53,471 nucleotides of DNA, from the IMG/VR virus record IMGVR_UViG_3300005239_000666; one strand, written 5' to 3'. Below are positions 4,335 to 53,471 of this stretch, piece after piece; within the stretch, counting starts at the first letter, position 1, and each line of letters starts with the position of its first letter. The notes beneath the pieces are model-generated. The model was given only the letters and a program-made list of their open reading frames with translations, ran no database searches and was not told the DNA's origin. The DNA is from an uncultured virus (IMG/VR IMGVR_UViG_3300005239_000666). Taxonomy: Duplodnaviria > Heunggongvirae > Uroviricota > Caudoviricetes. The position numbers and the translations under genes are program-made.

Positions 4335-4354
4335 NNNNNNNNNNNNNNNNNNNN

Positions 4355-5555: not shown

Positions 5556-5854
5556 ATTTTACTCCAGAATAATTTATTAAATGCTATTTTCATTTTTTGT
5601 TTAGGTCCTTCTTTAAAGTTTAATGGACCGTAGTCATACTCTGGTGTTATATAAGTTTTTTCAACTATATATTCATAAACAGGTTCGTTGTATTCGTTAA
5701 TTAAACTCTCATCAAATATATCACTGGTGCCTAATGCTCTTTTTATCATTTGACAGGTCTTAATAAGATTTTGATCAGTTATAGCAACAGGATTACCATT
5801 ACTATCAATGTAACTGATTTGATCTAAAGTTTGATTTGCTATTATTTCTATCAT
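5552..5854 (-). CDS. hypothetical protein (copy 2)
   Basis: 100 aa with ATGA-type overlaps; paralog or allele of 3683..3991. Confidence 0.75.
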   Translation of the reverse strand: MIEIIANQTLDQISYIDSNGNPVAITDQNLIKTCQMIKRALGTSDIFDESLINEYNEPVYEYIVEKTYITPEYDYGPLNFKEGPKQKMKIAFNKLFWSKI

Positions 5855-6903
5855 AGTGAGGCTAATATTGTATTACATGTGTTATTTATTTCTTCATCTG
5901 TTAAAAAAGGATCAATTGGTAATGTTAAAATTGTATCACTGATATGTTTACAATTAATACAATCATCGCTTCTATGTGATATGTTTTTATACATAGGGCG
6001 TTCAGATATAGGTTTTTCATAGTGTACATTGGCATTTAATCTTTTTTTAACTCTGTTTCTTGTTTCTTTGTCTTCAAATCTGACAATATATTTATGATAC
6101 GTATGATTGACACCATTTGAGGTTGATTGTATAATTATGTCGTCCTTTAGTTGTTCATCATATTTTTTTGCTATTATTTGTTTAGCCTCAACATATTGAT
6201 CTAGTTTTTTTAATCTATAATCAATAAACTTTGCATTAAAGAATAACATTTTAGAGTTGTATCCTAGTATCTCATGGTTACCATGTTTTCTTAGCTTAAT
6301 ACACATATCAGCATAGTCTTTGTTATCTGTCAATACCACACCACCTCCGGCGATCCCACCTATCGTTTTGTTCGCATTAAAACTTATTGTACTTAATTCT
6401 CCTAGAGTACCTGCTTTAACACCGTTAAGACTAGAACCTATGGCCTGAGCTGCGTCTTCTATAAATGATATGTTTTTTTCTTTACAAAATTTTAATATCT
6501 CTGTTATATCTGACATATTACCAAATAAATGTGGATAGACAATTGCTTTTACTTTGTCTGAATACATACGTTTGATACTGTCAAGTGATATATGATAAGT
6601 TTCTTTATCTATATCGCAAAATACAGGAGTTGCACCTACCATAGATATACAAGACGCCGTTGATATCCACGAAAAGTTGGTTGTTATTACTTCATCGCCT
6701 GGTTTTATATCTAGACATTTAAGAGAAAACATTAAAGCGTCTGTGCCGTTTTGACATGCAACGGCATATTTTCTTGGTATTATACTTGTGATTGTTTTTT
6801 CTAGAAACTCTATGTTTTGTTCCTGATTTTCTTTCATGCATTCATCAAAAAGTTTAGTATAGTTCTCTTTGTCTTCAGCGTATTCAAATTTCCATGCGTC
6901 CAT
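5851..6903 (-). CDS. DegT/DnrJ/EryC1/StrS PLP-dependent sugar aminotransferase
   Basis: NGTDAL, PGDEVI, GATPVFCDID, IEDAAQAIG and SFNANK (PLP lysine) motifs. Confidence 0.93.
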   Translation of the reverse strand: MDAWKFEYAEDKENYTKLFDECMKENQEQNIEFLEKTITSIIPRKYAVACQNGTDALMFSLKCLDIKPGDEVITTNFSWISTASCISMVGATPVFCDIDKETYHISLDSIKRMYSDKVKAIVYPHLFGNMSDITEILKFCKEKNISFIEDAAQAIGSSLNGVKAGTLGELSTISFNANKTIGGIAGGGVVLTDNKDYADMCIKLRKHGNHEILGYNSKMLFFNAKFIDYRLKKLDQYVEAKQIIAKKYDEQLKDDIIIQSTSNGVNHTYHKYIVRFEDKETRNRVKKRLNANVHYEKPISERPMYKNISHRSDDCINCKHISDTILTLPIDPFLTDEEINNTCNTILASL

Positions 6904-7277
6904 TATTTCTCCTCTACCACTTTCTTTTCTCCTTTTTCATAATAAGTTTCTACCTTTATCTTATCATTTTTAGCCCTTGCTTGGCAATGGTGTAAGCAAG
7001 TTTGGTTGATTTTTTCTAAATTATCTCCTTTATCTCTAGCCTGGACTAGATCATCTTCAAATTTTTGCCATTGTTTAGTGTCTAGTATATCATCTATACT
7101 TTTATAATCTGTAAGTTTACTAACAGAGTAAATTTCTTTAAATAGTTCACTCTTTGTAGTCTTCGGGTGATCACACCAACAACATGGTAATAAATGACCT
7201 CTATTGTCTATTGCCAAAGGCATTGGCTCAAAGTCTTTGTTGCCTGGATCAGGTAAACACTTAGGATTTATTTTCAT
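6903..7277 (-). CDS. stand-alone SPASM/Twitch-like Fe-S domain protein
   Basis: C..LAIDNRGHLLPCCWC...CLHHC pattern; coupled to the upstream radical SAM gene. Confidence 0.65.
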   Translation of the reverse strand: MKINPKCLPDPGNKDFEPMPLAIDNRGHLLPCCWCDHPKTTKSELFKEIYSVSKLTDYKSIDDILDTKQWQKFEDDLVQARDKGDNLEKINQTCLHHCQARAKNDKIKVETYYEKGEKKVVEEK

Positions 7278-7896
7278 ATACTGCGTTCTTTGATTTTAAT
7301 GCTTTTGTTGGTTTAAAAGGATCATCATCCGATAACCATCTTGATGATTCTACTATTATAAAATTTATTCCGTTATCAGTTGCCATTTTTTTACAAGTTT
7401 CAATATCGTTTTCATTGTATTTAAATCTAATACATTGCCATACAGGTGTACTTAATAAATGTTTAGTCGCCTCTTTCATTATCTCAAACATCTTAACACC
7501 ATCTTGATTCTTTCTATATTTATGACTGTCTTTAGGTAGACCATCACAGGCGAATATCCATACTGCTTTAGGATTTGCCTGCCAAGATTTAATATACCAT
7601 GACATAGGTTTAGCTGTAGCTGCATTATGAACAAACACCTCTGGTACATCTTTTAGTTGAGACATTATATCATTAAATTTAGGGTGGTGTACTGGATCCG
7701 ATAACTGTCCACAAAAGGCAATATCTTTGAAATGTTTTGCTATCATAGTTATCTCAACAGCGCTTAGGTCACGTCCATGAGGTACCAAACCATGATTGGT
7801 AAACGATGTTTGTCTTTGGCAGTTAGGACATTCAAGAGGACATCTATGTGTTACATCTAAATTCAATCTAACTCTTTTTTTAAAATGTCTTTCCAT
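7261..7896 (-). CDS. short radical SAM protein
   Basis: HRCPLECPNCQR, FCGQLSDP and DGLPKDSHKYR motifs. Confidence 0.88.
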   Translation of the reverse strand: MERHFKKRVRLNLDVTHRCPLECPNCQRQTSFTNHGLVPHGRDLSAVEITMIAKHFKDIAFCGQLSDPVHHPKFNDIMSQLKDVPEVFVHNAATAKPMSWYIKSWQANPKAVWIFACDGLPKDSHKYRKNQDGVKMFEIMKEATKHLLSTPVWQCIRFKYNENDIETCKKMATDNGINFIIVESSRWLSDDDPFKPTKALKSKNAVYENKS

Positions 7897-8279
7897 TATT
7901 TTGTATCCTTCTTTAATTCTTTTCCGTTTCTATATGTGGTTTCTACTTTTATCTTATCTTCTTTTTCTCTTATTTTACAGTGATGAATACAAACGCCATT
8001 GATTTTATTTAGATTATCTCCTACGTCTCTGGCCCTTACTAAATCATTTTCAAATTCTTTCCACTCTGGTTGATCCATTAATTGTTCAACTGTATCAAAA
8101 TTTTCAAGTTTACTTACGTCATATATTTTTTTAAATCTTTCACTATTAGTAACTGCCCTTTCGTCACACCAACAACAAGGTAATATGTAACCTCTATTGT
8201 TTATTGCCAATGGCATAGATATGTAATTAGGGTCGTCTGGATTAGGAAGACAACGAGGTCTTAACTTAATATTCTTCAT
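7896..8279 (-). CDS. stand-alone SPASM/Twitch-like Fe-S domain protein
   Basis: C..LAINNRGYILPCCWC...CIHHC; paralog of 6903..7277. Confidence 0.65.
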   Translation of the reverse strand: MKNIKLRPRCLPNPDDPNYISMPLAINNRGYILPCCWCDERAVTNSERFKKIYDVSKLENFDTVEQLMDQPEWKEFENDLVRARDVGDNLNKINGVCIHHCKIREKEDKIKVETTYRNGKELKKDTK

Positions 8280-9792: not shown

Positions 9793-9813
9793 TATTTATA
9801 AGACTTATAAATA
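9793..9813. promoter_or_regulatory. back-to-back divergent T4 late promoters: TATAAATA at 9793..9800 (-) and 9806..9813 (+)
   Basis: Two exact consensus matches at the divergence point of the two operons; gp55 is encoded in the window. Confidence 0.8.
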
Positions 9814-9834
9814 GCTATATAACATGGAGGCTAT

Positions 9835-10005
9835 ATGACTATAAAACAAAAACACAAAGACCTAAAAAAACAAGTTAAAGAAGCTGAAGTAAAAAGAGAA
9901 ACTAAACGTGGTTCAAGAAGTTGGACAGATTTACGTACATTAAAAAAATTAAAACTAAAAATGAAAGATAAGTTAAGATTATCTAAAAAAAGAATGAGTT
10001 TATGA
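9835..10005 (+). CDS. small basic coiled-coil protein (YdcH/DUF465-like), 56 aa
   Basis: Not in the ORF track. GGAGG SD, then MTIKQKHKDLKKQV...LRTLKKLKLKMKDKLRL; ATGA overlap with the next gene. Confidence 0.7.
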   Translation: MTIKQKHKDLKKQVKEAEVKRETKRGSRSWTDLRTLKKLKLKMKDKLRLSKKRMSL

Positions 10006-10457
10006 AGACTTACCAATACGATTTAGAAAAAATTAAAAAAGAGTTAGAGACTTTACCAGATTATAATAAACAATTATATCTACAAGGTTATTCTAAAGAT
10101 ATGGATCCTGAAGAAGGAGCTGGTAAAGGTTACGATATAGATAGTAGCGAACACACATACACTGTTCCTTTATTTGATATACCTTACATTAATAGTATAA
10201 TGGAAGAACATAAACTTACTAGAACAAGATTAATGAGAATGAAACCTAAAGCATGTTATCTTTGGCATAATGACTTAACACAAAGATTGCATATACCAAT
10301 AGTAACAAATGAACATTGTTTCTTATTATTAGATAGTGATAGAATACACATACCAGCCACAGGAGAGGCGTATGTAATAGACACTAGAAAAAAACATACA
10401 GCATTAAATTGTTCAAAAGAAAATCGTATACACATTGTTGGAGGATTACCTTACTAA
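10002..10457 (+). CDS. 2OG-Fe(II) oxygenase, Asp/Asn beta-hydroxylase-like (copy 1)
   Basis: WHND...RLHIP...KHTALN...RIHIV gives the HxD...H triad and terminal Arg. Confidence 0.8.
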   Translation: MKTYQYDLEKIKKELETLPDYNKQLYLQGYSKDMDPEEGAGKGYDIDSSEHTYTVPLFDIPYINSIMEEHKLTRTRLMRMKPKACYLWHNDLTQRLHIPIVTNEHCFLLLDSDRIHIPATGEAYVIDTRKKHTALNCSKENRIHIVGGLPY

Positions 10458-11752
10458 TGGATAATACATTATACGATTGTCTTATAACTTCTTTACCAGG
10501 TATGGATAAAAGTAAACCGGCACCTGGTCCATCTTTTCTAAAAGGTTATTTACAAACAAAAGGATTCAAAATTAAAGTTATTGACGGTCATATGTATGAC
10601 ACTCTAGATAACATTGAAAAAGAAATTAAAAAATATGACTTTAGATGGCTAGGTATATCTGTATTTTCTTATATGCAAAAAGATGATGGCTTAGAATTAG
10701 GTAAAAGATTTGAAAATTCATTTTATGGTGGATCAGGAGTTGATATAGAATGGCCTACAAAGTATTTTATAACAGGAGAAGGAGAGTATGCTCTTGTAGA
10801 ATTTTTAAATGGCAACTTTGATTATCCTGGTATCAACGGAAAACTACCAAGACAAATAGCAGACATAGAAAGTTTACCACCACCGGATTATTCAGACGTA
10901 ATACAACAACATAACTATCGTAAGTTTGTAATATCAGGATCACGAGGTTGTGTTAGAAATTGTACGTTTTGTGATGTTGCTAGTATATGGCCTAAATTTA
11001 GATGGAAGTCAGGTAAAAAAATTGCTGACGAAATGCACCAAGTATCTGAACAAACAGGTACAAAAAAAATACACTTTTCAGATTCATTAATCAATGGTTC
11101 TATGAAACATTTTAGAGACTTATGCCATGAGTTGGCAAATAGACCTAAAAAAATTAAATGGGAGGCACAGTTTATTGTTAGGGCAGAAAAGACTTTTTCT
11201 CAACAAGACTTTGATAATTTACAAAACTCTGGTTGTAATGGATTAGAAATGGGTATAGAAGCAGGTAACGAAGAAGTTAGAGATCATATGAGAAAGAAAT
11301 TTACAAATGAAGATATAAAATACTTTGTTACAAACCTAGGAGAAAGAAATATTACAATGAAGTTTTTACTTATTGTAGGATATCCTACGGAAACGGAAGA
11401 AATGTTTGAAGATACTCTACAACTATTAAGAGACTATGCTCATTATTCACATTTAATTAGTATATCTCACCACGTTATGATGACCTTTAAAAACACACCA
11501 CTAGACTTTGAACATAGAGAGTTGTTTGATAGTGACTTTGGTTTTAAATGGAAAAATGAACACTCTAACTTTGATATAAGATTTCAAAGATTTATAAAAG
11601 TATATGAATTAGGAGTTGAGTTAGGCTATCAGTTTCAAGATCACTGTTTAGAAAAAATAGAGAGATACAAATCCGATAAACTTAATGAAAACAGAAAGTC
11701 TATAGGATTTATTCACCCTAAAAAGAAAAATCAATTACACGTTCAAAGCTAA
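10457..11752 (+). CDS. B12-binding-domain radical SAM enzyme, class B methyltransferase-like (copy 1)
   Basis: N-terminal cobalamin-binding Rossmann motifs (LKGYL..G..IKVID, GISVFS, YGG, GEGE), then SRGCVRNCTFC, GIEAGN and IVGYPTET. Start is the ATG overlapping the TAA at 10457. Confidence 0.9.
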   Translation: MDNTLYDCLITSLPGMDKSKPAPGPSFLKGYLQTKGFKIKVIDGHMYDTLDNIEKEIKKYDFRWLGISVFSYMQKDDGLELGKRFENSFYGGSGVDIEWPTKYFITGEGEYALVEFLNGNFDYPGINGKLPRQIADIESLPPPDYSDVIQQHNYRKFVISGSRGCVRNCTFCDVASIWPKFRWKSGKKIADEMHQVSEQTGTKKIHFSDSLINGSMKHFRDLCHELANRPKKIKWEAQFIVRAEKTFSQQDFDNLQNSGCNGLEMGIEAGNEEVRDHMRKKFTNEDIKYFVTNLGERNITMKFLLIVGYPTETEEMFEDTLQLLRDYAHYSHLISISHHVMMTFKNTPLDFEHRELFDSDFGFKWKNEHSNFDIRFQRFIKVYELGVELGYQFQDHCLEKIERYKSDKLNENRKSIGFIHPKKKNQLHVQS

Positions 11753-11927
11753 AAGATTTATTAAATCCTAAAGTAAACTTTCTTCCTTCTTGACTAAACC
11801 CATGAGTGATTCATAATTTTCATCAACAGATTTAACAACTAACACCAAAGTCTATACATAATAATATATCCAGATTAATCTAAAAATGTGTTTCAGCATT
11901 GTATAGTGACAATAGAATTGTGTACAT
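11749..11927 (-). other. indel-ridden duplicate of the 3' end of the btuB-like gene, ending at N-gap 11928..11947
   Basis: Aligns by eye with 13646..13840 but has many single-base deletions. Confidence 0.75.
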
Positions 11928-11947
11928 NNNNNNNNNNNNNNNNNNNN

Positions 11948-12348
11948 TTACCAGATTATAAAAACAATATATCTACAAGGTATTCTAAAGACATGGATCC
12001 TGAAGAAGGAGCTGGTAAAGGTATGACGTAGATGAAGTAGAACACACATATACTGTTCCTTTATTTGATATACCTTATATTAATAGTATAATGAAAGAAC
12101 ACAAACTCACTAGAACAAGATTGATGAGAATGAAACCTAAAGCATGTTATCTTTGGCATAATGACTTGACACAAAGATTACATATACCAATAGTAACAAA
12201 TGAACACTGTTTCTTATTACTAGATAATGATAGAATACACATACCAGCCACAGGAGAGGCGTATGTAATAGACACTAGAAAAAAACATACAGCACTAAAT
12301 TGTTCAAAAGAAGATCGTACTCATATTGTTGGAGGACTACCTTATTAA
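11948..12348 (+). CDS. 2OG-Fe(II) oxygenase (copy 2), 5' end at N-gap and indel-damaged
   Basis: Near-identical to 10002..10457. Confidence 0.8.
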
Positions 12349-13649
12349 TGGATAATACATTATATGACGCCGTTATTACATCACTGCCAGGAATGGATAA
12401 GGGTAAACCTGCACCTGGTCCTTCTTTTTTAAAAGGATATTTAGAACCATTAGGATTTAAAATTAAAGTTATAGATGGTAATCAATTAGATACTTTAGAA
12501 AATATACACAAAGAAATTGCAAAATATAAATTTAGATGGTTAGGTATATCTGTATTTTCTTTTATGCAAAAAGAAGATGGTTTAAAATTAGGAGAAAAAT
12601 ATGATAATGCTTTTTACGGAGGATCAGGTGTTGATATAAAATGGCCTTCTAAAAATTTTATAGTAGGAGAAGGAGAATATGCTGTACAAGAATTTTTAAA
12701 AGGAAATTTTGATTATCCTGGTATTAACGGAAGACTACCAAAACAGATAGAAAACATAGAAGATTTGCCACCACCAGATTATTCAGACGTAATAAAAGAA
12801 CACAAATATGGCAGATTTATAATATCTGGTTCTAGAGGTTGTGTTAGAAATTGTACTTTCTGTGATGTTGCAAGTATCTGGCCAAAATTTAGATGGAAAT
12901 CAGGTAAAAAAATTGCTGACGAAATACATAGTGTTGCCGAACATACTAAATCTGAAAAGATAGCATTTTCCGATTCATTGGTTAATGGTTCAATGAAACA
13001 TTTTAGAGATATGGTTTACGAATTATCTATAAAAAAGAAAAAGGTAAAATGGGAAGGACAGTTTATTGTCAGAGCTGAAAAGACTTTTTCGCAAGAAGAT
13101 TTTGATAATTTGGCAAACTCTGGTTGTAATGGTTTGGAAATGGGTATAGAATCAGGTAATGAAAGTGTTAGAAATCATATGAAAAAAAAGTTTACTAATG
13201 ATGATATAAAATACTTTGTTACCAATTTAGGAGAAAGAAAAATTAAAATGAAGTTCTTACTGATTGTAGGATATCCTACAGAAACGGAAGAAATGTTTGA
13301 AGATACTATGCAACTATTAAGAGACTATGCAAAGTATTCACATTTAATCAGTGTATCTCACCACGTTATGATGACTTTTGAAAATACACCTTTAGATTTT
13401 GAACATAGAGAATTGTTTGGTGGAGAATTTGGCTTCAAATGGAAAAATCAAAACTCCGATTTTGATATAAGATTTCAAAGATTTATAAAAGTTTATGAAT
13501 TAGGAAACCAATTAGGTTATCAGTTTCAACAACATTGTATTGACAAAATAGAAAGATACAAATCTGATAAACTTAATGAAAATAGAAAGTCTATAGGAAT
13601 TGATCACCCTAGAAAGAAAAAAGTTAATTCTTTACATGTACAATCTTAA
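12348..13649 (+). CDS. B12-binding-domain radical SAM enzyme (copy 2)
   Basis: Same motifs as 10457..11752 (GEGE, SRGCVRNCTFC, GIESGN). Confidence 0.9.
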   Translation: MDNTLYDAVITSLPGMDKGKPAPGPSFLKGYLEPLGFKIKVIDGNQLDTLENIHKEIAKYKFRWLGISVFSFMQKEDGLKLGEKYDNAFYGGSGVDIKWPSKNFIVGEGEYAVQEFLKGNFDYPGINGRLPKQIENIEDLPPPDYSDVIKEHKYGRFIISGSRGCVRNCTFCDVASIWPKFRWKSGKKIADEIHSVAEHTKSEKIAFSDSLVNGSMKHFRDMVYELSIKKKKVKWEGQFIVRAEKTFSQEDFDNLANSGCNGLEMGIESGNESVRNHMKKKFTNDDIKYFVTNLGERKIKMKFLLIVGYPTETEEMFEDTMQLLRDYAKYSHLISVSHHVMMTFENTPLDFEHRELFGGEFGFKWKNQNSDFDIRFQRFIKVYELGNQLGYQFQQHCIDKIERYKSDKLNENRKSIGIDHPRKKKVNSLHVQS

Positions 13650-15022
13650 AAAGATTTATTAAAACCTAAAGTAAATTTTCTTCCTTCTTGACTAAACCCA
13701 TGAGGTGATTCATAATTTTCATCAAATAGATTTAACAAACTAACACCAAAGTCTATACCATAATAATTATATCCAAGATTTAAATCTAACAAATGTGTTT
13801 CAGGCATTGTTATAGTTGACCAATTAGAATTGTGTACATCTAAATGTTTACCTTTATATTTGTAATTAGTAGTTAAAGAAAATTTATTTTTTAAATCTTT
13901 TGTATTCATAAATCCAACAGACCAANNNNNNNNNNNNNNNNNNNNTTCTATCTCTTTAAAGAAACCTAATTTATATGTTTCGTGTTCTTCATCAAACCTA
14001 TGATGATATGAAAATATATTGTGTGAAAAATTAAAGAAGTATCCTAGATTATGATGTTGACTTGCTAAAGATTCATTATGTTTATAATCAAAGCCAAAAC
14101 CATATTTTTCTTTTTGATGTGTTCCTCTTATTGTATAGTTTTCACTTTCATAATGAGAGTCGTCATAGTCTCTATCATATTCATGTGTATGAAAAGTTAA
14201 ACTATTATTTAAATAATCAACACCTGTTTGTAAGGCAAAGAAAGTATTATCTGCCCATTTACCGTCTTGTATGGAAACACTATGACCATCTATATCAGAG
14301 AAAGTGTTTCTTGCAAACCAAGATGTTCGCCAATGTATTTGATCATACCATTTACTTACGTTAACACCTATTGTTTTATTATTTGTTCCATCTTTTTCGT
14401 CAGCTCCTGATAAAACAGAAACGTTTTGTGACTTATGTTCGCCAGCTGAAAAAGATATATCAAAGTCATTTAATTTAGTATAGTAATTACCACTAATAGT
14501 TTTATCATTACCATTACCACCAATACTTAATTTTTTATCATAATCTACAGTTGTTCTAAAATTAATTGCACCACCAACAGCGTCTGCTCCCCAATGAGCA
14601 CCTTGTGACCCTTTGTATACATCTATTTGTACAACATTAAACATAAAGTCTTGACCAACATCGTGGGCGCCTGTAGGTGTAGAGTAATCATTGATTGATA
14701 TTCCATTTAATAATACTAATGTATGATTAGAATTAGTGCCTCTTAAAAACACCGATGATTGTTGACCTGTAGGACCTGATTGAGTTATGTCTAAACCTTG
14801 AACATAGTTTAATACTTTAGGTAAATCAATTAGATTATACTTTTGAATTTCAGATTTTTTAATTGTAAGTGTAGGTGTTATTTTATCACCTAATGCGTTT
14901 GAGTTGTTTATGTTTGGATATATTGTAAGACAAGGAATATCGTCATCCCATTTACAATCATCTTCCTTGGAATAGGCAACATTAGCCCATACCAAGATTA
15001 ATATAAGAATTAATCTTATCAT
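13646..15022 (-). CDS. btuB: TonB-dependent outer-membrane receptor, BtuB-like cobalamin transporter (internal N-gap 13926..13945)
   Basis: Signal peptide; plug-domain motifs GQQSSVFLRGTNSNHTLVLLNG and KGSQGAHWGADAVGGAIN; C-terminal NLFDENYE...GRKFTLGFNKSF ending in Phe; preceded by a cobalamin riboswitch. Confidence 0.85.
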   Translation of the reverse strand: MIRLILILILVWANVAYSKEDDCKWDDDIPCLTIYPNINNSNALGDKITPTLTIKKSEIQKYNLIDLPKVLNYVQGLDITQSGPTGQQSSVFLRGTNSNHTLVLLNGISINDYSTPTGAHDVGQDFMFNVVQIDVYKGSQGAHWGADAVGGAINFRTTVDYDKKLSIGGNGNDKTISGNYYTKLNDFDISFSAGEHKSQNVSVLSGADEKDGTNNKTIGVNVSKWYDQIHWRTSWFARNTFSDIDGHSVSIQDGKWADNTFFALQTGVDYLNNSLTFHTHEYDRDYDDSHYESENYTIRGTHQKEKYGFGFDYKHNESLASQHHNLGYFFNFSHNIFSYHHRFDEEHETYKLGFFKEIEXXXXXXXWSVGFMNTKDLKNKFSLTTNYKYKGKHLDVHNSNWSTITMPETHLLDLNLGYNYYGIDFGVSLLNLFDENYESPHGFSQEGRKFTLGFNKSF

Positions 15023-15025
15023 GTT

Positions 15026-15127
15026 GAGTCTCCTTGCTCGTTGTATGGCCTAGGTGGCATTCGGAGTATAACCGTATCAAGTAATCTGGACGAATTTCAC
15101 GTCACTTTCCCACTACACTTTTAGGCC
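15026..15127 (-). ncRNA. class-II cobalamin riboswitch (AdoCbl-variant family, env8HyCbl-like)
   Basis: Minus strand reads GGCCTAAAAGTGTAGTGGGAAAGTGACGTGAAATTCGTCCAGATTACTTGATACGGTTATACTCCGAATGCCACCTAGGCCATACAACGAGCAAGGAGACTC. It has a GGCCTA/TAGGCC closing stem, GGGAA and GCCAC core motifs, and the SD AGGAG inside the terminal GAG/CTC hairpin loop, 7 nt before the btuB ATG. Confidence 0.95.
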
Positions 15128-15144
15128 ATTGTTATGTACTATAT

Positions 15145-15173
15145 AGTATATAATATTTTATCTAAAATGGCAA
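15145..15173 (-). promoter_or_regulatory. sigma70-type (early) promoter for riboswitch-btuB
   Basis: TTGCCA-17 nt-TATACT on the minus strand, just upstream of the riboswitch. Confidence 0.75.
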
Positions 15174-15182
15174 CTTTCCGAA

Positions 15183-24811: not shown

Positions 24812-25992
24812 ATGCCAACAATAAACTTTCCGACAGGTCCGTCTCTAAACGATACATATAATTTAGGTGTACGTACATGGAAATGGAATGGGGAAGCATG
24901 GGCTTTACAACCACTTACAGGTGGATTTACAGGATCACAAGGTTATACAGGTTCAGCAGGCGCTGGCGGTTCATCTGGTGCGATTGGTTATACAGGTTCA
25001 ACAGGTGTCGTTTTGCCTTTAACTATAGATACAACAAACGATAGAGTAGGTATCGGAACAACATCTCCTGCAACTTCACTTCATATTGCAGCTCAAATTC
25101 CAAAAATTAGAATAGAAGATACAGATTTATCAGGAATGGCATTTGATATTAGAGGAGCTGGACCTAGTGCTGTATTTGATTTAGATCCAGATTCTTCTCA
25201 AGCGCTTGCTGATTTTGCGTTTGATATTGGCGGCAGTGAAAAAATGAGACTTCGTGGCACTGGTAGATTAGGAATAGGAACTACAACTCCATCAACAACG
25301 TTAGATGTAGTCGGTGATATCAAATCTAGTGGCAAGATATTTACAGGCGATACAGAATTACAGAGTGGAGCAAGAACTACTATTAGTGCAGGCGCTTCAA
25401 ATCTTGAAATTACTGGTACTACCAATGGTATGAAACTATATGTTAAAAATGGAGGCGTTGAAGGATTTGCTGCTGGATCGGAAGGTGGTGTAGGACACGG
25501 TGCAATTGCTTTAAGAGGCCAAACAATACTTGTGGGTGGTAATAGTAGTAAGGGTTTCGCATTTGGTAGAAATGTTAGTTGGTCCGATGTTGATTCAATA
25601 GGTCAAGACGATATAGTAATTAAAGGTGACACTGTAAATATTAATGGTGCATTAACAGTAGGTGGTGTAGCAATAACTCCTGCGACAGTACCAACAATAA
25701 GTTCAATAAGTCCTGCGACTATTGAAACAAGTACAGCAACAGCAGTTACAATTACAGGAACAAATTTCGCTTCTATACACAAGTAGAGCATAATTCTACT
25801 ACAGGTATTTGGTATACTGCCGACTNNNNNNNNNNNNNNNNNNNNNNNNNNNNNNNNNNAGGTGGTAGTTCAACTACACCAACAACATATAATTTTACCG
25901 TAAGAATAACGGATGCCGAATCGCAAACAGTAGATAGATCGTTTTCTATTACAACATCTTACGGTGCAACAGGAGGAGCTCAGTTTAACTAA
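24812..25992 (+). CDS. tail-fibre-like protein with C-terminal Ig-like domains (indels and N-gap 25826..25859)
   Basis: Same N-terminal module as 22696; RVGIGTTSP and RLGIGTTTP fibre repeats; PTISSISP...ITGTNF (IPT/TIG-like). After the gap, TYNFTVRITD...DRSFSI ends at a TAA overlapping the ATG at 25992. Confidence 0.65.
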
Positions 25993-28256: not shown

Positions 28257-28276
28257 NNNNNNNNNNNNNNNNNNNN

Positions 28277-44773: not shown

Positions 44774-45333
44774 TGTACTTAACTAATAACAATTGTATTT
44801 CCGTATCAAAGTTTGAACCAGATTATTGCAACAAGCTAATTGCATTGTGTGATACTTTAAAACTAGAAGAAGCAGCTATACAAGACGGCAATGGTAAAAA
44901 TCGTAGTAGTAGTGTTGCGTGGGTTAAACAAAATGATGAGTTGTATCAATCTATAGAAGAAGTAATTTTTAATCATAATGTAAAAGCAGAATGGAATTTT
45001 GATTTAAAAGAATTTGAACCTTTTCAGTATACAATATACGAAGAAGGAGACCACTATGATTGGCACATAGATTCGCATACTAAACCTTACCCTAATGGTT
45101 TTATTAGAAAAATAAGTTTTACTTTATGTTTAAATGAAGATTATGAAGGAGGAGAATTTGAAATTGCAAGTTTAAATCCTAAAGGAGTTAATCAAAATAT
45201 AAAGTTTAAAGATAAATTTACAACAGGTACATTGATATCCTTTCCCTCATTTAGTTGGCATAAGGTACATCCGGTAACCAAAGGAACAAGAAAGGTTTTA
45301 GTAGGTTGGATTGTAGGTCCTCCTTTCGTGTAA
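44773..45333 (+). CDS. 2OG-Fe(II) oxygenase (prolyl-hydroxylase/PKHD-like)
   Basis: YDWHID, RKIS, YEGGEF and HKVHPVTKGTRKVLVGW. Confidence 0.9.
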   Translation: MYLTNNNCISVSKFEPDYCNKLIALCDTLKLEEAAIQDGNGKNRSSSVAWVKQNDELYQSIEEVIFNHNVKAEWNFDLKEFEPFQYTIYEEGDHYDWHIDSHTKPYPNGFIRKISFTLCLNEDYEGGEFEIASLNPKGVNQNIKFKDKFTTGTLISFPSFSWHKVHPVTKGTRKVLVGWIVGPPFV

Positions 45334-46807
45334 TGCCAGATATAAGATACATCATAGTTGACAAGATAAACGATGTCTATTTAAAAGTAGACGCTGACGC
45401 CTCTATACGTAGAGAGTTATCAGAGTATTTTTGTTTTGAGGTGCCAGGTTATAAGTTTGTTCCTGCATATAGAAACAGAGTATGGGACGGAAAAATAAGA
45501 TTATTTTCTTATGCAACTGGTCAAATATATGCCGGTTTATATCCTTATATACTTAAATGGTGTGAAGATAATAAAATACAAGTAGTAGATGGTACTAAAA
45601 CAGTTGATACTAAAGTTGATTTAAAATTAGTAGAGGCATTTACAAAAGCATTAAAGATACCTTTTGAAGTAAGAGATTATCAAAAAGAGGCATTTATTCA
45701 TGCAACAACAAAGAGTAGATGTTTATTATTATCTCCAACAGCCTCTGGTAAATCACTTATAGTATATCTATTAGTAAGATTTAATATGTTAAGACTAAAA
45801 GAAGAAAAGAAAAAGATACTTATTATAGTACCAACAACATCATTAGTAGAACAACTATTCAAAGACTTCAAAGATTATGGTTGGAATCCAGACAAAACGT
45901 ACACAAAATATATCAAGGACATGATAAAGATACTAATAAAAATGTTATTATATCTACATGGCAATCAATATACAATCAACCAAAAGTATGGTTTAAACAG
46001 TTTGGTATGGTCATAGGTGACGAAGCACACTTATTTAAGGCAGTTTCACTCACAAAGATAATGACCAAACTAGAAAAATGTAAGTATAGAATAGGTCTTA
46101 CAGGTACTTTAGATGGTACTAAAACACACAAGTTGGTGTTAGAAGGATTATTTGGTGTTGTTAATAAGGTTATATCTACAAGTGAATTGCAAGAGAACAA
46201 ACAATTAGCCGAATTAAAAATTATATGTTTAGTACTACAACATGACAAAGAAGTAAGACATATGATGAAAGATAAGAACTACCAAGAGGAGATGGATTAC
46301 TTGGTAAGAAATGAAAAAAGAAACAAATACATTAGAAACTTGGCCTCTAGTTTACAAGGAAATACTTTATGTTTATTTCAATACGTTGAAAAACATGGTG
46401 ACGAACTTGTAAAAATGATAAAAGAAAAGGCAGAGGATAAAAATGTATTCTATGTACATGGAGGAGTAGAAACAGATGATAGAGAAAAGATTAGAGAGAT
46501 TACGGAGAAAAGCGACAACGCCATTATTGTTGCTAGTTACGGCACTTTTTCAACCGGAATTAATATACGGAATTTGCATAACATTATTTTTGCTAGTCCT
46601 TCTAAATCTCGCATAAGAAATTTACAAAGTATTGGTAGAGGTTTAAGATTAAAGGACAATGATTCAGCTGCGACTTTATATGATATAGCAGACGATATAA
46701 GTTATAAAGACAAAGAGAATTATACGTTAGCACATTTTCGTGAACGGATAAATATTTACAATGGTGAAGATTTTAATTATGAGATACACAATATAGATTT
46801 GAAATGA
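45333..46807 (+). CDS. uvsW: UvsW SF2 helicase (single-base frameshift near 45895)
   Basis: PTASGKS, GDEAH, GLTGT and QSIGRGLR, split across two overlapping ORFs. Confidence 0.92.
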
Positions 46808-47819: not shown

Positions 47820-47894
47820 GCGGGTGTAGCTCAGTGGTAGAGCGTCTCGTTGCCAACGAGAAGGCCGTCGGTCCGACCCCGATCACCCGCTCCA
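47820..47894 (+). tRNA. tRNA-Gly (GCC), CCA encoded
   Basis: Acceptor GCGGGTG/CACCCGC, D arm GCTC/GAGC, anticodon arm TCTCG-TTGCCAA-CGAGA, T arm GTCGG-TCCGACC-CCGAT, discriminator T. Confidence 0.93.
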
Positions 47895-52402: not shown

Positions 52403-53471
52403 ATGACAGCAGTACCAAAAGAAGACTTTGATATACACGCTAAGCAAGATTTAGAAGGCGTTGAGAAGAAGTGGCAACAGTTTCAAGACGAAAATGATAT
52501 ATCTAATTTAGAAGATATAGACGAGAGAGTACTTACAGAAGCTATTCAAAAAGATTTAGGATACGTGTCAAAGATGACAGTACAAGAGTATACCCTATTT
52601 CAAAAGTGGCAAGAAGTACATAGAAAATTCCCTACAACCGAATCAACTACATTGTATGGTACTGAAAAAATATTAACATCACCTGAACAAAGAACTCAAA
52701 TAGATACAGTTAGAAACAATATCTGGATTCCCGAATCACCTGAAGATTATGATAAGTTAGAACCTGTATTAGAATTTACAGATGATAGTACAAAGAATTT
52801 CAAAGGCAAAGCAGTAAGAACTGCCAAACTATCAGAGAACTGGAATACATTAAGAACTTTCCTATCTACTATGAAAAACAATAGTAATATTGGTAGACAG
52901 TTATTCTTTAATGTAAATGATAATAGATCAGGTAAACATTTAGGTGTCATTTGTATATCTGGTGACTTTATGGATTTAACACCTAGAGACAGTGCTATTG
53001 GTTGGGATAGACAAAGTAAAACTTTTGGTGGTATGATTAATCATACAGCAATTGGCTCTTCTATTGTACCAACACAACCACTAGGTTACAGTTACACAGG
53101 TGGAAAACTATTAGCATATCTATGTTTATCAGATGACGTACAAAGAATATGGCAAGAAAAGTATGGTGACAAACTAGTTGGTGTTACCACAACATCTTTA
53201 TATGGTAAGGCAAAAGCAAATACATTAAGTCAATACGATGGTTTAAAATACTGGAAACGTATGGGTTTTACTATGGGGTCAGTATCATATGAACCACAAC
53301 CAGAAACTAAAAAACTAATTAAACAATGGTTAAAGAAAAATCATACTAGAAAATACTTTGAGTGGTATGAGGCAACAAGAGCCAACGGCCAACCATTAAA
53401 GAGAGATCATAAGAATAGATCATATATGTTTACCTATTCTAAAATGGGTATAGATAAAAAACTAATAAAAC
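52403..53471 (+). CDS. DUF4338 / DruA-like protein, runs off the window
   Basis: Not in the ORF track. Open frame from ATG 52403 with LTPRD..IGW, VPTQPLG...GGKLLA, VTTTSLYG...SQY and WKRMGFT.G motifs. Confidence 0.7.
   Translation, partial: MTAVPKEDFDIHAKQDLEGVEKKWQQFQDENDISNLEDIDERVLTEAIQKDLGYVSKMTVQEYTLFQKWQEVHRKFPTTESTTLYGTEKILTSPEQRTQIDTVRNNIWIPESPEDYDKLEPVLEFTDDSTKNFKGKAVRTAKLSENWNTLRTFLSTMKNNSNIGRQLFFNVNDNRSGKHLGVICISGDFMDLTPRDSAIGWDRQSKTFGGMINHTAIGSSIVPTQPLGYSYTGGKLLAYLCLSDDVQRIWQEKYGDKLVGVTTTSLYGKAKANTLSQYDGLKYWKRMGFTMGSVSYEPQPETKKLIKQWLKKNHTRKYFEWYEATRANGQPLKRDHKNRSYMFTYSKMGIDKKLIK

Follow-up and report, generated by a model that had tools for sequence, protein, structure and literature searches.

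A T4-like marine phage, represented by the 53.5-kb IMG/VR scaffold IMGVR_UViG_3300005239_000666 (six runs of N; the whole stretch is referred to here as the window), encodes a BtuB-like TonB-type outer-membrane receptor behind an env8-type cobalamin riboswitch. The receptor gene lies on the minus strand and converges on a small plus-strand operon that ends in a class-B-type radical S-adenosylmethionine (SAM) enzyme. We put at roughly one half the probability that the receptor is a feedback-gated vitamin B12 capture gene that serves cobalamin-type radical SAM chemistry in a sugar-tailoring island, and that it is linked by descent or exchange with an accessory cassette of SAR11 bacteria. A preliminary description of this region had seen in it a self-contained phage B12 module; its observation was partly confirmed, and the interpretation built on it was partly supported. 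The sequence identities and families, the folds, and the gene linkage presented below were observed directly. For comparison, 70 distinct IMG/VR contigs were collected, 44 of them with an orthologous radical SAM gene and 57 with a receptor of the window's type (type 1). They were fetched through their similarity to the receptor and radical SAM genes and many of them are close kin, so they form a biased sample. L-numbers designate related loci or contigs compared with the window, and G-numbers designate genomes or records.

The riboswitch aptamer, of the AdoCbl-II/Cbl-IIa type (class IIa), occupies positions 15,047–15,127 of the minus strand and was recognised by the Rfam model RF01689 over its full length (model positions 1–81 of 81), with 75.2 bits against a gathering score of 36.5 and an E-value of 5e-17; R1, a covariance model built in this analysis, scored it at 93.2 bits. 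A class-II cobalamin riboswitch ahead of the receptor had been proposed before, and it is indeed present, with an env8 sequence. The expression platform (15,023–15,046, minus strand) is formed by a 7-nt J1/13 linker and a 14-nt P13 hairpin with the ribosome-binding site (RBS) in its loop, followed by three nucleotides and the ATG, and it is identical to nucleotides 82–102 of env8. Compared with the parental env8Cbl-IIa sequence (Supplementary Table S3 of PMC6158498), the window differs by one base, at position 11 in J1/3, where it has U11; in the accessible part of PMC6158498, this position falls within the stretch that was randomised. Contigs L012 and L030 equal env8 over nucleotides 1–102, the engineered 12-nt linker extension excepted. 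The residue numbers used in the accessible parts of PMC5028336 and PMC6158498 (A9, G12, U13, U45, A46, G96–A99, and the P13 hairpin at 89–102) fit the numbering of the window.

The env8 RNA comes from the Global Ocean Sampling (GOS) read AACY021350931.1 and, according to the sections of PMC5028336 and PMC6158498 at hand, it prefers hydroxo- and methylcobalamin over adenosylcobalamin and represses a reporter in E. coli about 8.5-fold; PMC5028336 places the RBS in L13, describes a regulatory kissing loop between L5 and L13, and gives the J1/13 linker as 7 nt. The ligand choice and the translational repression of env8 were demonstrated by others, in E. coli and in vitro. From its likeness to env8, the riboswitch of the window, which has the U11 allele, would be expected to bind cobalamins with a small upper ligand and to repress in turn. 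Under the names env8HyCbl and env8Cbl-IIa (RF01689, AACY021350931.1, PDB 4FRG according to the part of PMC6158498 consulted), env8 is a crystallised model switch, which L012 and L030 reproduce and from which the window is one base away. Otherwise env8 and the window agree, in the 7-nt J1/13 linker, in the P13 hairpin that carries the RBS, and in the start context, the native AAC-ATG. What differs is the setting, as the literature, in the portions covered here, treats env8 as an environmental sequence of unknown host, whereas here it is found inside what is, by its genes, a pelagimyophage, upstream of a BtuB-like gene.

With our own covariance model, the riboswitch was detected in the window and in 28 of the 57 phage receptor loci, always directly upstream of the receptor, and in none of 13 further loci. 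Twenty-six of these 28 phage riboswitches are of the env8 type; the other two, L029 and L033, have the long 3′ platform typical of SAR11 chromosomes. When the promoter-and-leader stretch (window positions 15,020–15,175) was compared by BLAST with 401 Pelagibacteraceae genomes, its riboswitch part remained unmatched, and the matches obtained were short, A+T-rich, and confined to the promoter part of the query. Contigs L037–L039 have the promoter and the receptor type in common with L036, L040, and L041, and differ from them in the block that contains the env8-type riboswitch and the first signal-peptide codons, so that the signal peptide also differs; to judge from this presence/absence polymorphism, the leader seems to move as a cassette. 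In addition, a permuted alphaproteobacterial-type tmRNA gene (RF01849, 125 bits, at L063:7559–7910) was found in L061–L064, immediately before a receptor gene that has no riboswitch and whose product shares 58% identity with the receptor of the window; tmRNA genes are known in the same phage group from the sections of PMC9004378 available to us.

In the limited literature collection that was searched, no paper was found that describes phages with a cobalamin riboswitch or a btuB-type gene. In the accessible part of PMC7029224, Riboswitch Scanner is reported to have returned zero riboswitches in pelagimyophages or cyanomyophages. The available sections of PMC9004378 describe glutamine riboswitches in marine myophages of the Melnitz/Mosig type and mention, as their only cobalamin riboswitch, one that precedes btuB in the OM43 host. 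These glutamine riboswitches belong to the same phage group and are a kind of switch used by streamlined marine hosts, but they have another ligand class and another target gene than the riboswitch of the window. What is new here is the riboswitch-bearing form of the phage receptor cassette and its identity with env8.

The receptor gene (13,646–15,022, minus strand) is broken in the window by a 20-N gap; its intact orthologues encode 531–546 aa, and that of contig L009 encodes 535 aa. A Plug domain was detected in the product (PF07715, 1.2e-17), and its best NCBIfam families are TonB-B12 TIGR01779 (3e-26) and BtuB NF007926 (3e-25), the query being the gapped ORF of the window and the matches lying mainly over the plug. 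A profile of 15 phage receptors, searched against PDB sequences, retrieved E. coli BtuB at 3e-28 and the next family, Cir, at 1e-8. In the AlphaFold2 (AF2) model of the L009 receptor (pLDDT 80.2), a plug fills a barrel in which about 22 strands were counted; as regards a TonB box, the N-terminal region is conserved but of low confidence in the model. In a Foldseek search with this model, ranks 1–12 were all E. coli BtuB (E-values from 9e-28 to 5e-22, TM 0.75–0.82), and siderophore receptors started from 5e-21. The receptor thus groups with BtuB, and a clustering with siderophore receptors, which the preliminary description had named as a possible refutation, was not observed.

As in E. coli btuB/BtuB (PDB 1NQE–1NQH, 2GSK), a plug and a beta-barrel are encoded by a gene whose leader is a cobalamin riboswitch gating translation. 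The phage receptor is shorter (535 aa against 594 aa in the solved chains), has short loops, and is only 19–20% identical to the E. coli protein; it is phage-encoded, its riboswitch is of class IIa, for hydroxocobalamin and methylcobalamin (HyCbl/MeCbl) instead of adenosylcobalamin (AdoCbl), and no TonB-ExbBD or BtuFCD partner was detected for it. Its riboswitch context and family likeness suggest that it binds and transports cobalamin. More than 560 metagenomic relatives of the receptor were found, and where a source name exists, JGI lists them as cobalamin receptor or B12 transporter. Part of a receptor gene, with 71% identity to the metagenomic query, was also found on L103, a 2.9-kb contig binned as a Flavobacterium metagenome-assembled genome (MAG); this contig probably derives from a phage or from SAR11 and was binned wrongly. 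Metatranscriptome assemblies (four runs, each of a different study) yielded contigs that overlap, with 95–100% identity, stretches of the riboswitch and of the receptor, radical SAM, and hydroxylase genes; such contigs may contain DNA and indicate neither transcription, strand, nor level, and they were not used as evidence.

On the plus strand, three genes follow a T4-type late promoter motif, TATAAATA, located at positions 9806–9813, 22 nt before the first ORF. In agreement with the composition described earlier (small basic protein, 2OG-Fe(II) oxygenase, B12-binding radical SAM), they encode a Lys/Arg-rich protein of 56 aa (9835–10,005), an Asp/Asn beta-hydroxylase-type cupin of 151 aa with the fold of 2-oxoglutarate (2OG)/Fe(II) oxygenases (10,002–10,457), and the class-B-type radical SAM enzyme, copy 1, of 431 aa (10,457–11,752). 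The cupin matches PF05118 (7e-9, 36.1 bits against a cut-off of 22.6, profile positions 4–150 of 157), and an HxD motif and a later His, which we take to be the metal-binding pattern, are visible in its sequence. The stop codon of the cupin gene overlaps the start codon of the radical SAM gene, and wherever a related contig extends far enough, the cupin gene immediately precedes the radical SAM gene. The basic protein is poorly conserved, with 57–100% identity among close relatives and no detection in more distant ones. It may conceivably be a peptide substrate, in a trio with hydroxylase and methylase resembling the pathways of ribosomally synthesised and post-translationally modified peptides (RiPPs); it is, however, absent from the more distant relatives that keep the enzyme pair.

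The radical SAM enzyme matches PF04055 (1.5e-20) and carries a CxxxCxxC motif at C165, C169, and C172; a search for its relatives returned 25,502 sequences at E ≤ 0.001. In 80 aligned sequences, the three cysteines are invariant, as are G91 and G92, and G107 and E110 are nearly so. The B12-binding domain PF02310 is matched (E ≤ 0.01) by 69 of these 80 relatives, and it is the sole family matched, below the threshold, by the N-terminal 150 residues of the window enzyme. The AF2 model (pLDDT 93.2) has a short Rossmann-type N-terminal domain, and a Foldseek search with it gave, over the whole length, MgmA at 1.3e-17, followed by TsrM, OxsB, CysS, and TokK. The best partial NCBIfam matches were with PhpK-type and other B12 radical SAM families, none of them reaching the cut-off. 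The assignment made in the first place, to a class-B family, is supported by the frequency of PF02310 in the family and by MgmA, TsrM, and OxsB as best folds.

The class B methylases (MgmA 9CCB, TsrM 6WTE, OxsB 5UL3, TokK 7KDX) likewise combine a Rossmann-type N-terminus with a CxxxCxxC radical SAM barrel, and the phage enzyme matches their folds in full length, with E-values from 1e-17 to 1e-13; it differs from them in its short and diverged N-terminal domain and in its coupling to a 151-aa hydroxylase-type cupin. The enzyme presumably uses cobalamin. Its supposed late role in virion assembly found no basis beyond the late-promoter motif, and the enzyme sits in a sugar-tailoring island; it and other class-B enzymes of such phages most likely act on a sugar or some other small molecule and not in building the virion.

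In the scaffold as assembled, the hydroxylase and radical SAM genes appear twice, and the radical SAM/btuB junction had been described as present in both duplicated blocks. However, the second block (11,948–13,925) is bounded exactly by two 20-N scaffold gaps, one at 11,928–11,947, which is the joint of the false duplication, and one at 13,926–13,945, which conceals about 250 bp of the receptor gene (L009 has 252 extra bases). This block is 99.2% identical to the contig type L009/L031 and only 83.6% identical to the type L030, whereas the DNA on either side of it is 95–98% identical to the L030 type; it is a contig of a second strain placed between the gaps. It includes a partial, frameshifted hydroxylase-type gene at its edge (11,948–12,348, plus strand), whose L009 orthologue is intact, and copy 2 of the class-B-type radical SAM gene (12,348–13,649, plus strand; PF04055 1.1e-19), a second-strain haplotype 100% identical to L009/L031. 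In turn, block 1 terminates in the last codons of a second receptor gene, seen as a 3′-end fragment of the receptor gene of the first haplotype (11,751–11,927, minus strand) whose last 18 codons are 100% identical.

A genuine tandem duplication, that is, a phage with two diverged pairs of hydroxylase and radical SAM genes, would agree with the assembly as it stands, in which the two copies are 85% identical over 1.9 kb. We consider it very unlikely, given that both joints are scaffold gaps, that copy 1 ends in the 3′ end of another receptor gene, that the copy-2 block is 99.2% identical to the contig of another strain, that two copies were found in none of the 44 related contigs, and that the intact relatives have none of the frameshifts seen at the edge of copy 2. 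With the duplication recognised as an artefact, the presence of the junction in both blocks does not count as independent evidence. The stop-to-stop convergence of the receptor on the late-promoter operon itself holds, as the radical SAM and receptor genes overlap in their stop codons at 13,646–13,649.

The linkage of both genes was followed in the related phages. Nine of the 57 type-1 receptor contigs end too near the gene to be judged, which leaves 48 informative ones. An orthologous radical SAM gene converges on the receptor in 31 of these 48 (18 of the 21 contigs with a riboswitch and 13 of the 27 without it), and another class-B-like radical SAM gene lies within the fetched flanks in 10 more. 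In a phage genome of 165.7 kb, rated 100% complete, the receptor has two PF02310-positive radical SAM genes upstream of it, at distances of about 4 and 8 kb. Seen from the other side, the slot after the radical SAM gene in the 44 contigs is occupied by a type-1 receptor in 31 cases and by a type-2 receptor in 8, and it is empty in 5. The type-2 receptor, with ORFs of 595–601 aa, is 26% identical to type 1 (26–33% in tblastn segments), and no riboswitch was found at the type-2 loci. In these related phages, a pair formed by DUF6580 and the type-2 receptor occupies the same slot and converges on the same radical SAM gene; unlike the type-1 receptor of the window, it brings a putative carrier, DUF6580, and comes without a riboswitch. 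As the loci were fetched by similarity and are closely related, these counts are descriptive and not a test; the linkage draws independent weight from the non-orthologous pairs and the SAR11 parallel. In L029, L033, and L035 (around positions 5800–8000), which belong to other phages, the receptor gene comes after a DUF59-type gene for Fe-S assembly; rubrerythrin is encoded upstream, and ThyX and PstS-like genes are in the neighbourhood. The riboswitch is absent from L035, where the preceding gene overlaps the receptor start with its stop codon.

A first profile scan of genome contigs, made with a phage-only alignment, found nothing. A second scan, carried out with a wider alignment, revealed 23 loci in Pelagibacteraceae, on contigs of up to 1.5 Mb, and by sequence these SAR11 loci are the closest cellular relatives of the receptor. 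In a quick tree, the SAR11 receptors formed the sister clade of a clade of phage and metagenome sequences, with the type-2 phage receptor outside both; this tree comes from a short search and does not settle the direction of transfer. RF01689 was present upstream in 8 of the 10 SAR11 receptor loci scanned, a DUF6580 gene was directly downstream in 22 of 23, and an enzyme with PF02310 and PF04055 was adjacent in all three annotated loci, surrounded by glycosyltransferases and a DegT aminotransferase and located beside rRNA genes.

This SAR11 cassette (AdoCbl-II riboswitch, receptor, DUF6580) is the nearest known to the phage receptor, with 33% identity, and shows the same riboswitch family and the same pairing with a class-B radical SAM enzyme in a sugar-tailoring island. 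It differs in its receptors of 610–628 aa, in the DUF6580 gene that comes after them, in the long 3′ platform of its riboswitch, seen in phages only at L029 and L033, and in its radical SAM genes, only about 24% identical to the phage one. Among 151 Pelagibacteraceae genomes, many of them incomplete, a strong receptor match was found in 9, a weaker one in 12, and the riboswitch in 32; the cassette is accessory. HTCC1062 and HTCC1002 are listed with 0 TonB-dependent transporters in the accessible part of Tang et al. (PMC3400609). Whether B12 regulates btuB in SAR11 is given as unknown by Wienhausen et al. (PMC9296465), and no paper on this regulation beyond that statement was found in our limited literature collection. 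Nor did this collection yield a paper on DUF6580, for which no relative of solved structure was found by sequence and which is named only “putative transport protein” in the Atlas. In the SAR11 island of L100, a fusion of phosphoenolpyruvate (PEP) mutase and cytidylyltransferase, an adenylylsulfate (APS)-kinase-like gene, and a 706-aa B12-binding radical SAM gene lie near the cassette (L100:305–1600 and L100:3591–5711, both on the minus strand), which hints at B12-dependent phosphonate tailoring there.

In the mechanism that we propose, a pelagimyophage would carry, in a hypervariable sugar-tailoring island, a cobalamin-uptake cassette related to that of SAR11. The receptor would be transcribed from a sigma70-type promoter, with the env8-type class IIa riboswitch as its leader. 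With hydroxo-/methylcobalamin plentiful in the infected cell, the L5–L13 kissing loop would hide the RBS and translation of the receptor would stop, whereas under B12 scarcity the receptor would be made and more cobalamin would be captured by the cell. This cobalamin would serve the class-B radical SAM enzyme, encoded in the convergent late operon and translationally coupled to the small hydroxylase, and other class-B enzymes of such phages would likewise benefit. The receptor would be expressed early and the operon late, as their promoter types suggest.

Several results weigh against this reading. The riboswitch is missing from 29 of the 57 phage receptor loci, 7 of the 48 informative receptor contigs have no class-B-like radical SAM gene in the fetched flanks, and in 5 of the 44 radical SAM contigs the receptor is lacking, even with 4.6 kb or more of sequence after the gene; the linkage expected in related genomes is thus recurrent, in phages and in SAR11 chromosomes, but not obligate. 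Among close relatives, much of the linkage is synteny by descent. The receptor, named btuB in the preliminary description and nearest to BtuB by profile and fold, stays below the equivalog cut-offs (92 against 599.7 bits for TIGR01779 and 88.7 against 836 for NF007926). The match of the window enzyme itself to PF02310 is below the threshold (E 0.011, 16 bits against 32.1), and AprD4 and MiaB also rank high by fold. AprD4 is a class-B-like enzyme that works without cobalamin; as for MiaB, a single cysteine was seen in the N-terminal domain of the phage enzyme, which argues against an auxiliary cluster of the MiaB type.

To these points, those related to energy transduction must be added. As already described, neither tonB nor exbBD was found among the annotated ORFs of the window, where no homologue of DUF6580 and no other inner-membrane carrier was seen either, so that the module is not self-contained, contrary to what had been claimed. 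A search for tonB elsewhere was run on related phage records with the TonB_C profile PF03544, which matched none of the five, one of them complete. In receptor-bearing SAR11 genomes, the TonB C-terminal domain was detected in 0 of 3 with PF03544 and in 0 of 5 with TIGR01352, and the positive controls (E. coli, Caulobacter, and B. thetaiotaomicron) gave the expected signal. A single gene of the MotA/ExbB/TolQ family was found in each of five receptor-bearing SAR11 genomes; the SAR11 genomes of these searches were G002, G016, G025, G036, and G048 (and G003 and G004). With no TonB found and one MotA/ExbB/TolQ-type gene, transport through the receptor, of the phage and of the SAR11 cassette alike, would have to rely on an energy source that our reading presumes.

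That no TonB was found in host or phage would agree with another explanation, in which the receptor is a surface-remodelling or exclusion factor, for instance a decoy or replacement outer-membrane protein that alters the susceptibility to other phages, with the riboswitch as inherited baggage and the radical SAM enzyme functionally unconnected. Several coliphages and colicins use BtuB as their receptor, and half of the relatives of the phage gene have no riboswitch, both of which suit such a role; the gene also lies in the pelagimyophage “host recognition cluster”, related to surface alteration and coinfection avoidance in the accessible part of PMC7029224. Nevertheless, the riboswitch and its platform are nearly unchanged in the 26 env8-type phage contigs, while the receptor varies from 79 to 100% in identity, and two unrelated receptor types adjoin class-B radical SAM genes, one of them together with the putative carrier DUF6580, which would be needless for a decoy. 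This explanation seems improbable to us.

A similarly low chance is given to a second explanation, in which the receptor takes up cobalamin or another corrinoid to supply the infected cell as a whole, to the benefit of host enzymes or of other phage enzymes encoded elsewhere in the genome, and its adjacency to the radical SAM gene reflects a recombination hot spot. The slot between the radical SAM and LtfC-like genes does behave as a hot spot, being empty in 5 contigs and filled with type 1 in 31 and with type 2 in 8, and in L029 and L032 the receptor is located among genes of nucleotide metabolism (ThyX, the small subunit of ribonucleotide reductase (RNR)), with no radical SAM gene nearby. 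Against this explanation, the receptor is paired in SAR11 chromosomes, too, with B12-binding radical SAM genes, which are not orthologous to that of the phage; moreover, no B12-domain gene beyond the radical SAM one was found in three partial window-like phage records (23–46% complete).

Beyond our preferred reading of a B12 capture gene serving radical SAM chemistry, a wider one may be tentatively considered, although we regard it as rather doubtful. In it, env8 would be the switch of a phage gene, and pelagimyophages would spread among SAR11 a B12 module made of a BtuB-like receptor under riboswitch control, in some cases a DUF6580 carrier, and class-B radical SAM enzymes, with TonB-independent uptake and with infection shaping the demand for cobalamin in the surface ocean. 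Most SAR11 populations would have, in this wider reading, no TonB-dependent transporter and no detectable TonB. If it were true, infected cells would be B12 sinks, uptake would take place without canonical TonB, and the surface glycan chemistry of SAR11 and its phages would be affected. In any event, the most-studied class-II cobalamin riboswitch, known from crystal structures, single-molecule folding, and RNA-imaging tags, gains a biological context as the leader of a BtuB-like gene of a SAR11 phage. This joins three topics: the supposed indifference of SAR11 to TonB-type uptake, the B12 cassette of a minority of SAR11, and the phage islands rich in radical SAM genes. If the receptor imports B12, phages of the most abundant bacterium of the ocean would join the B12 economy, and they would provide a natural test case of receptor function without a recognisable TonB. 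The gene is also an example of a phage gene with metabolite feedback that is kept in some lineages and lost in others.

The sigma70-like promoter of the receptor (TTGCCA-17-TATACT, 10 of 12 matches; 15,145–15,173, minus strand) is located about 17 nt upstream of the aptamer and is presumed to be an early promoter, used by the host RNA polymerase (RNAP). A −35/−10 pair was read by eye at the equivalent place before the receptor gene in divergent relatives. Promoter-like sites occur in the region at chance frequency (38 found against 34.2 ± 6.6 expected), and so does TATAAATA in the window for A+T-rich DNA (14 against 12.4 ± 3.6); compared with the ORF list, 13 of these 14 sites are intergenic and face a gene start, including those of the tail sheath, the prohead protease, and the scaffold protein. 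Both motifs named earlier, the sigma70 promoter and the late promoter of the operon, are thus found where they had been placed, but in numbers no higher than chance, and it is position and conservation that back them.

The search against PHROGs revealed in the window a T4-type core formed by portal, sheath, tube, gp23-type capsid, prohead protease, scaffold, and terminase, in addition to homologues of UvsY, a gp46/47-type nuclease, and a gp55-type late sigma factor. For the capsid protein, identity is 86% with Pelagibacter phage Mosig, 74% with OM43 phage Melnitz, and 71% with HTVC008M. These sequences place the phage among the pelagimyophages (T4-like phages of SAR11), SAR11 being its presumed host. 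The left 18 kb of the window, with a G+C content of about 30%, contain two DegT-type aminotransferases, glycosyltransferases, several small radical SAM proteins, and a nitroreductase-like protein. This part is a sugar-tailoring island, and it fits the pelagimyophage “host recognition cluster” described by Zaragoza-Solas et al. (PMC7029224), as far as the accessible part of that paper goes. Among isolated phages, blastn with the 5.4-kb region gave zero matches, and tblastn with the receptor and the radical SAM enzyme gave distant or bacterial-contaminant matches only; in the isolate collection searched in this way, Mosig, Melnitz, and HTVC008M did not show the module. The nearest phage record, G001, has only the structural half of the window in common with it.

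Four more runs of N are present in the scaffold (1273–1292, 4335–4354, 25,826–25,859, and 28,257–28,276), so other oddities may likewise be assembly effects; around the last of these runs, the tail-fibre-like phrog_19943 is split across three ORFs. Two overlapping ORFs of the plus strand (45,306–46,016 and 45,881–46,807) both match the same DNA helicase families (phrog_16259 and phrog_16) and could correspond to a split gene, a frameshift, or an assembly error. In addition, a tRNA gene was detected at 47,820–47,891 on the plus strand (Rfam tRNA, 67.5 bits). Finally, the last ORF of the window (52,403–53,470, plus strand), which runs off its end, has a match to a DruA-like (Druantia) domain (PF14236, 6e-13), a defence-system family in this case carried by a phage.

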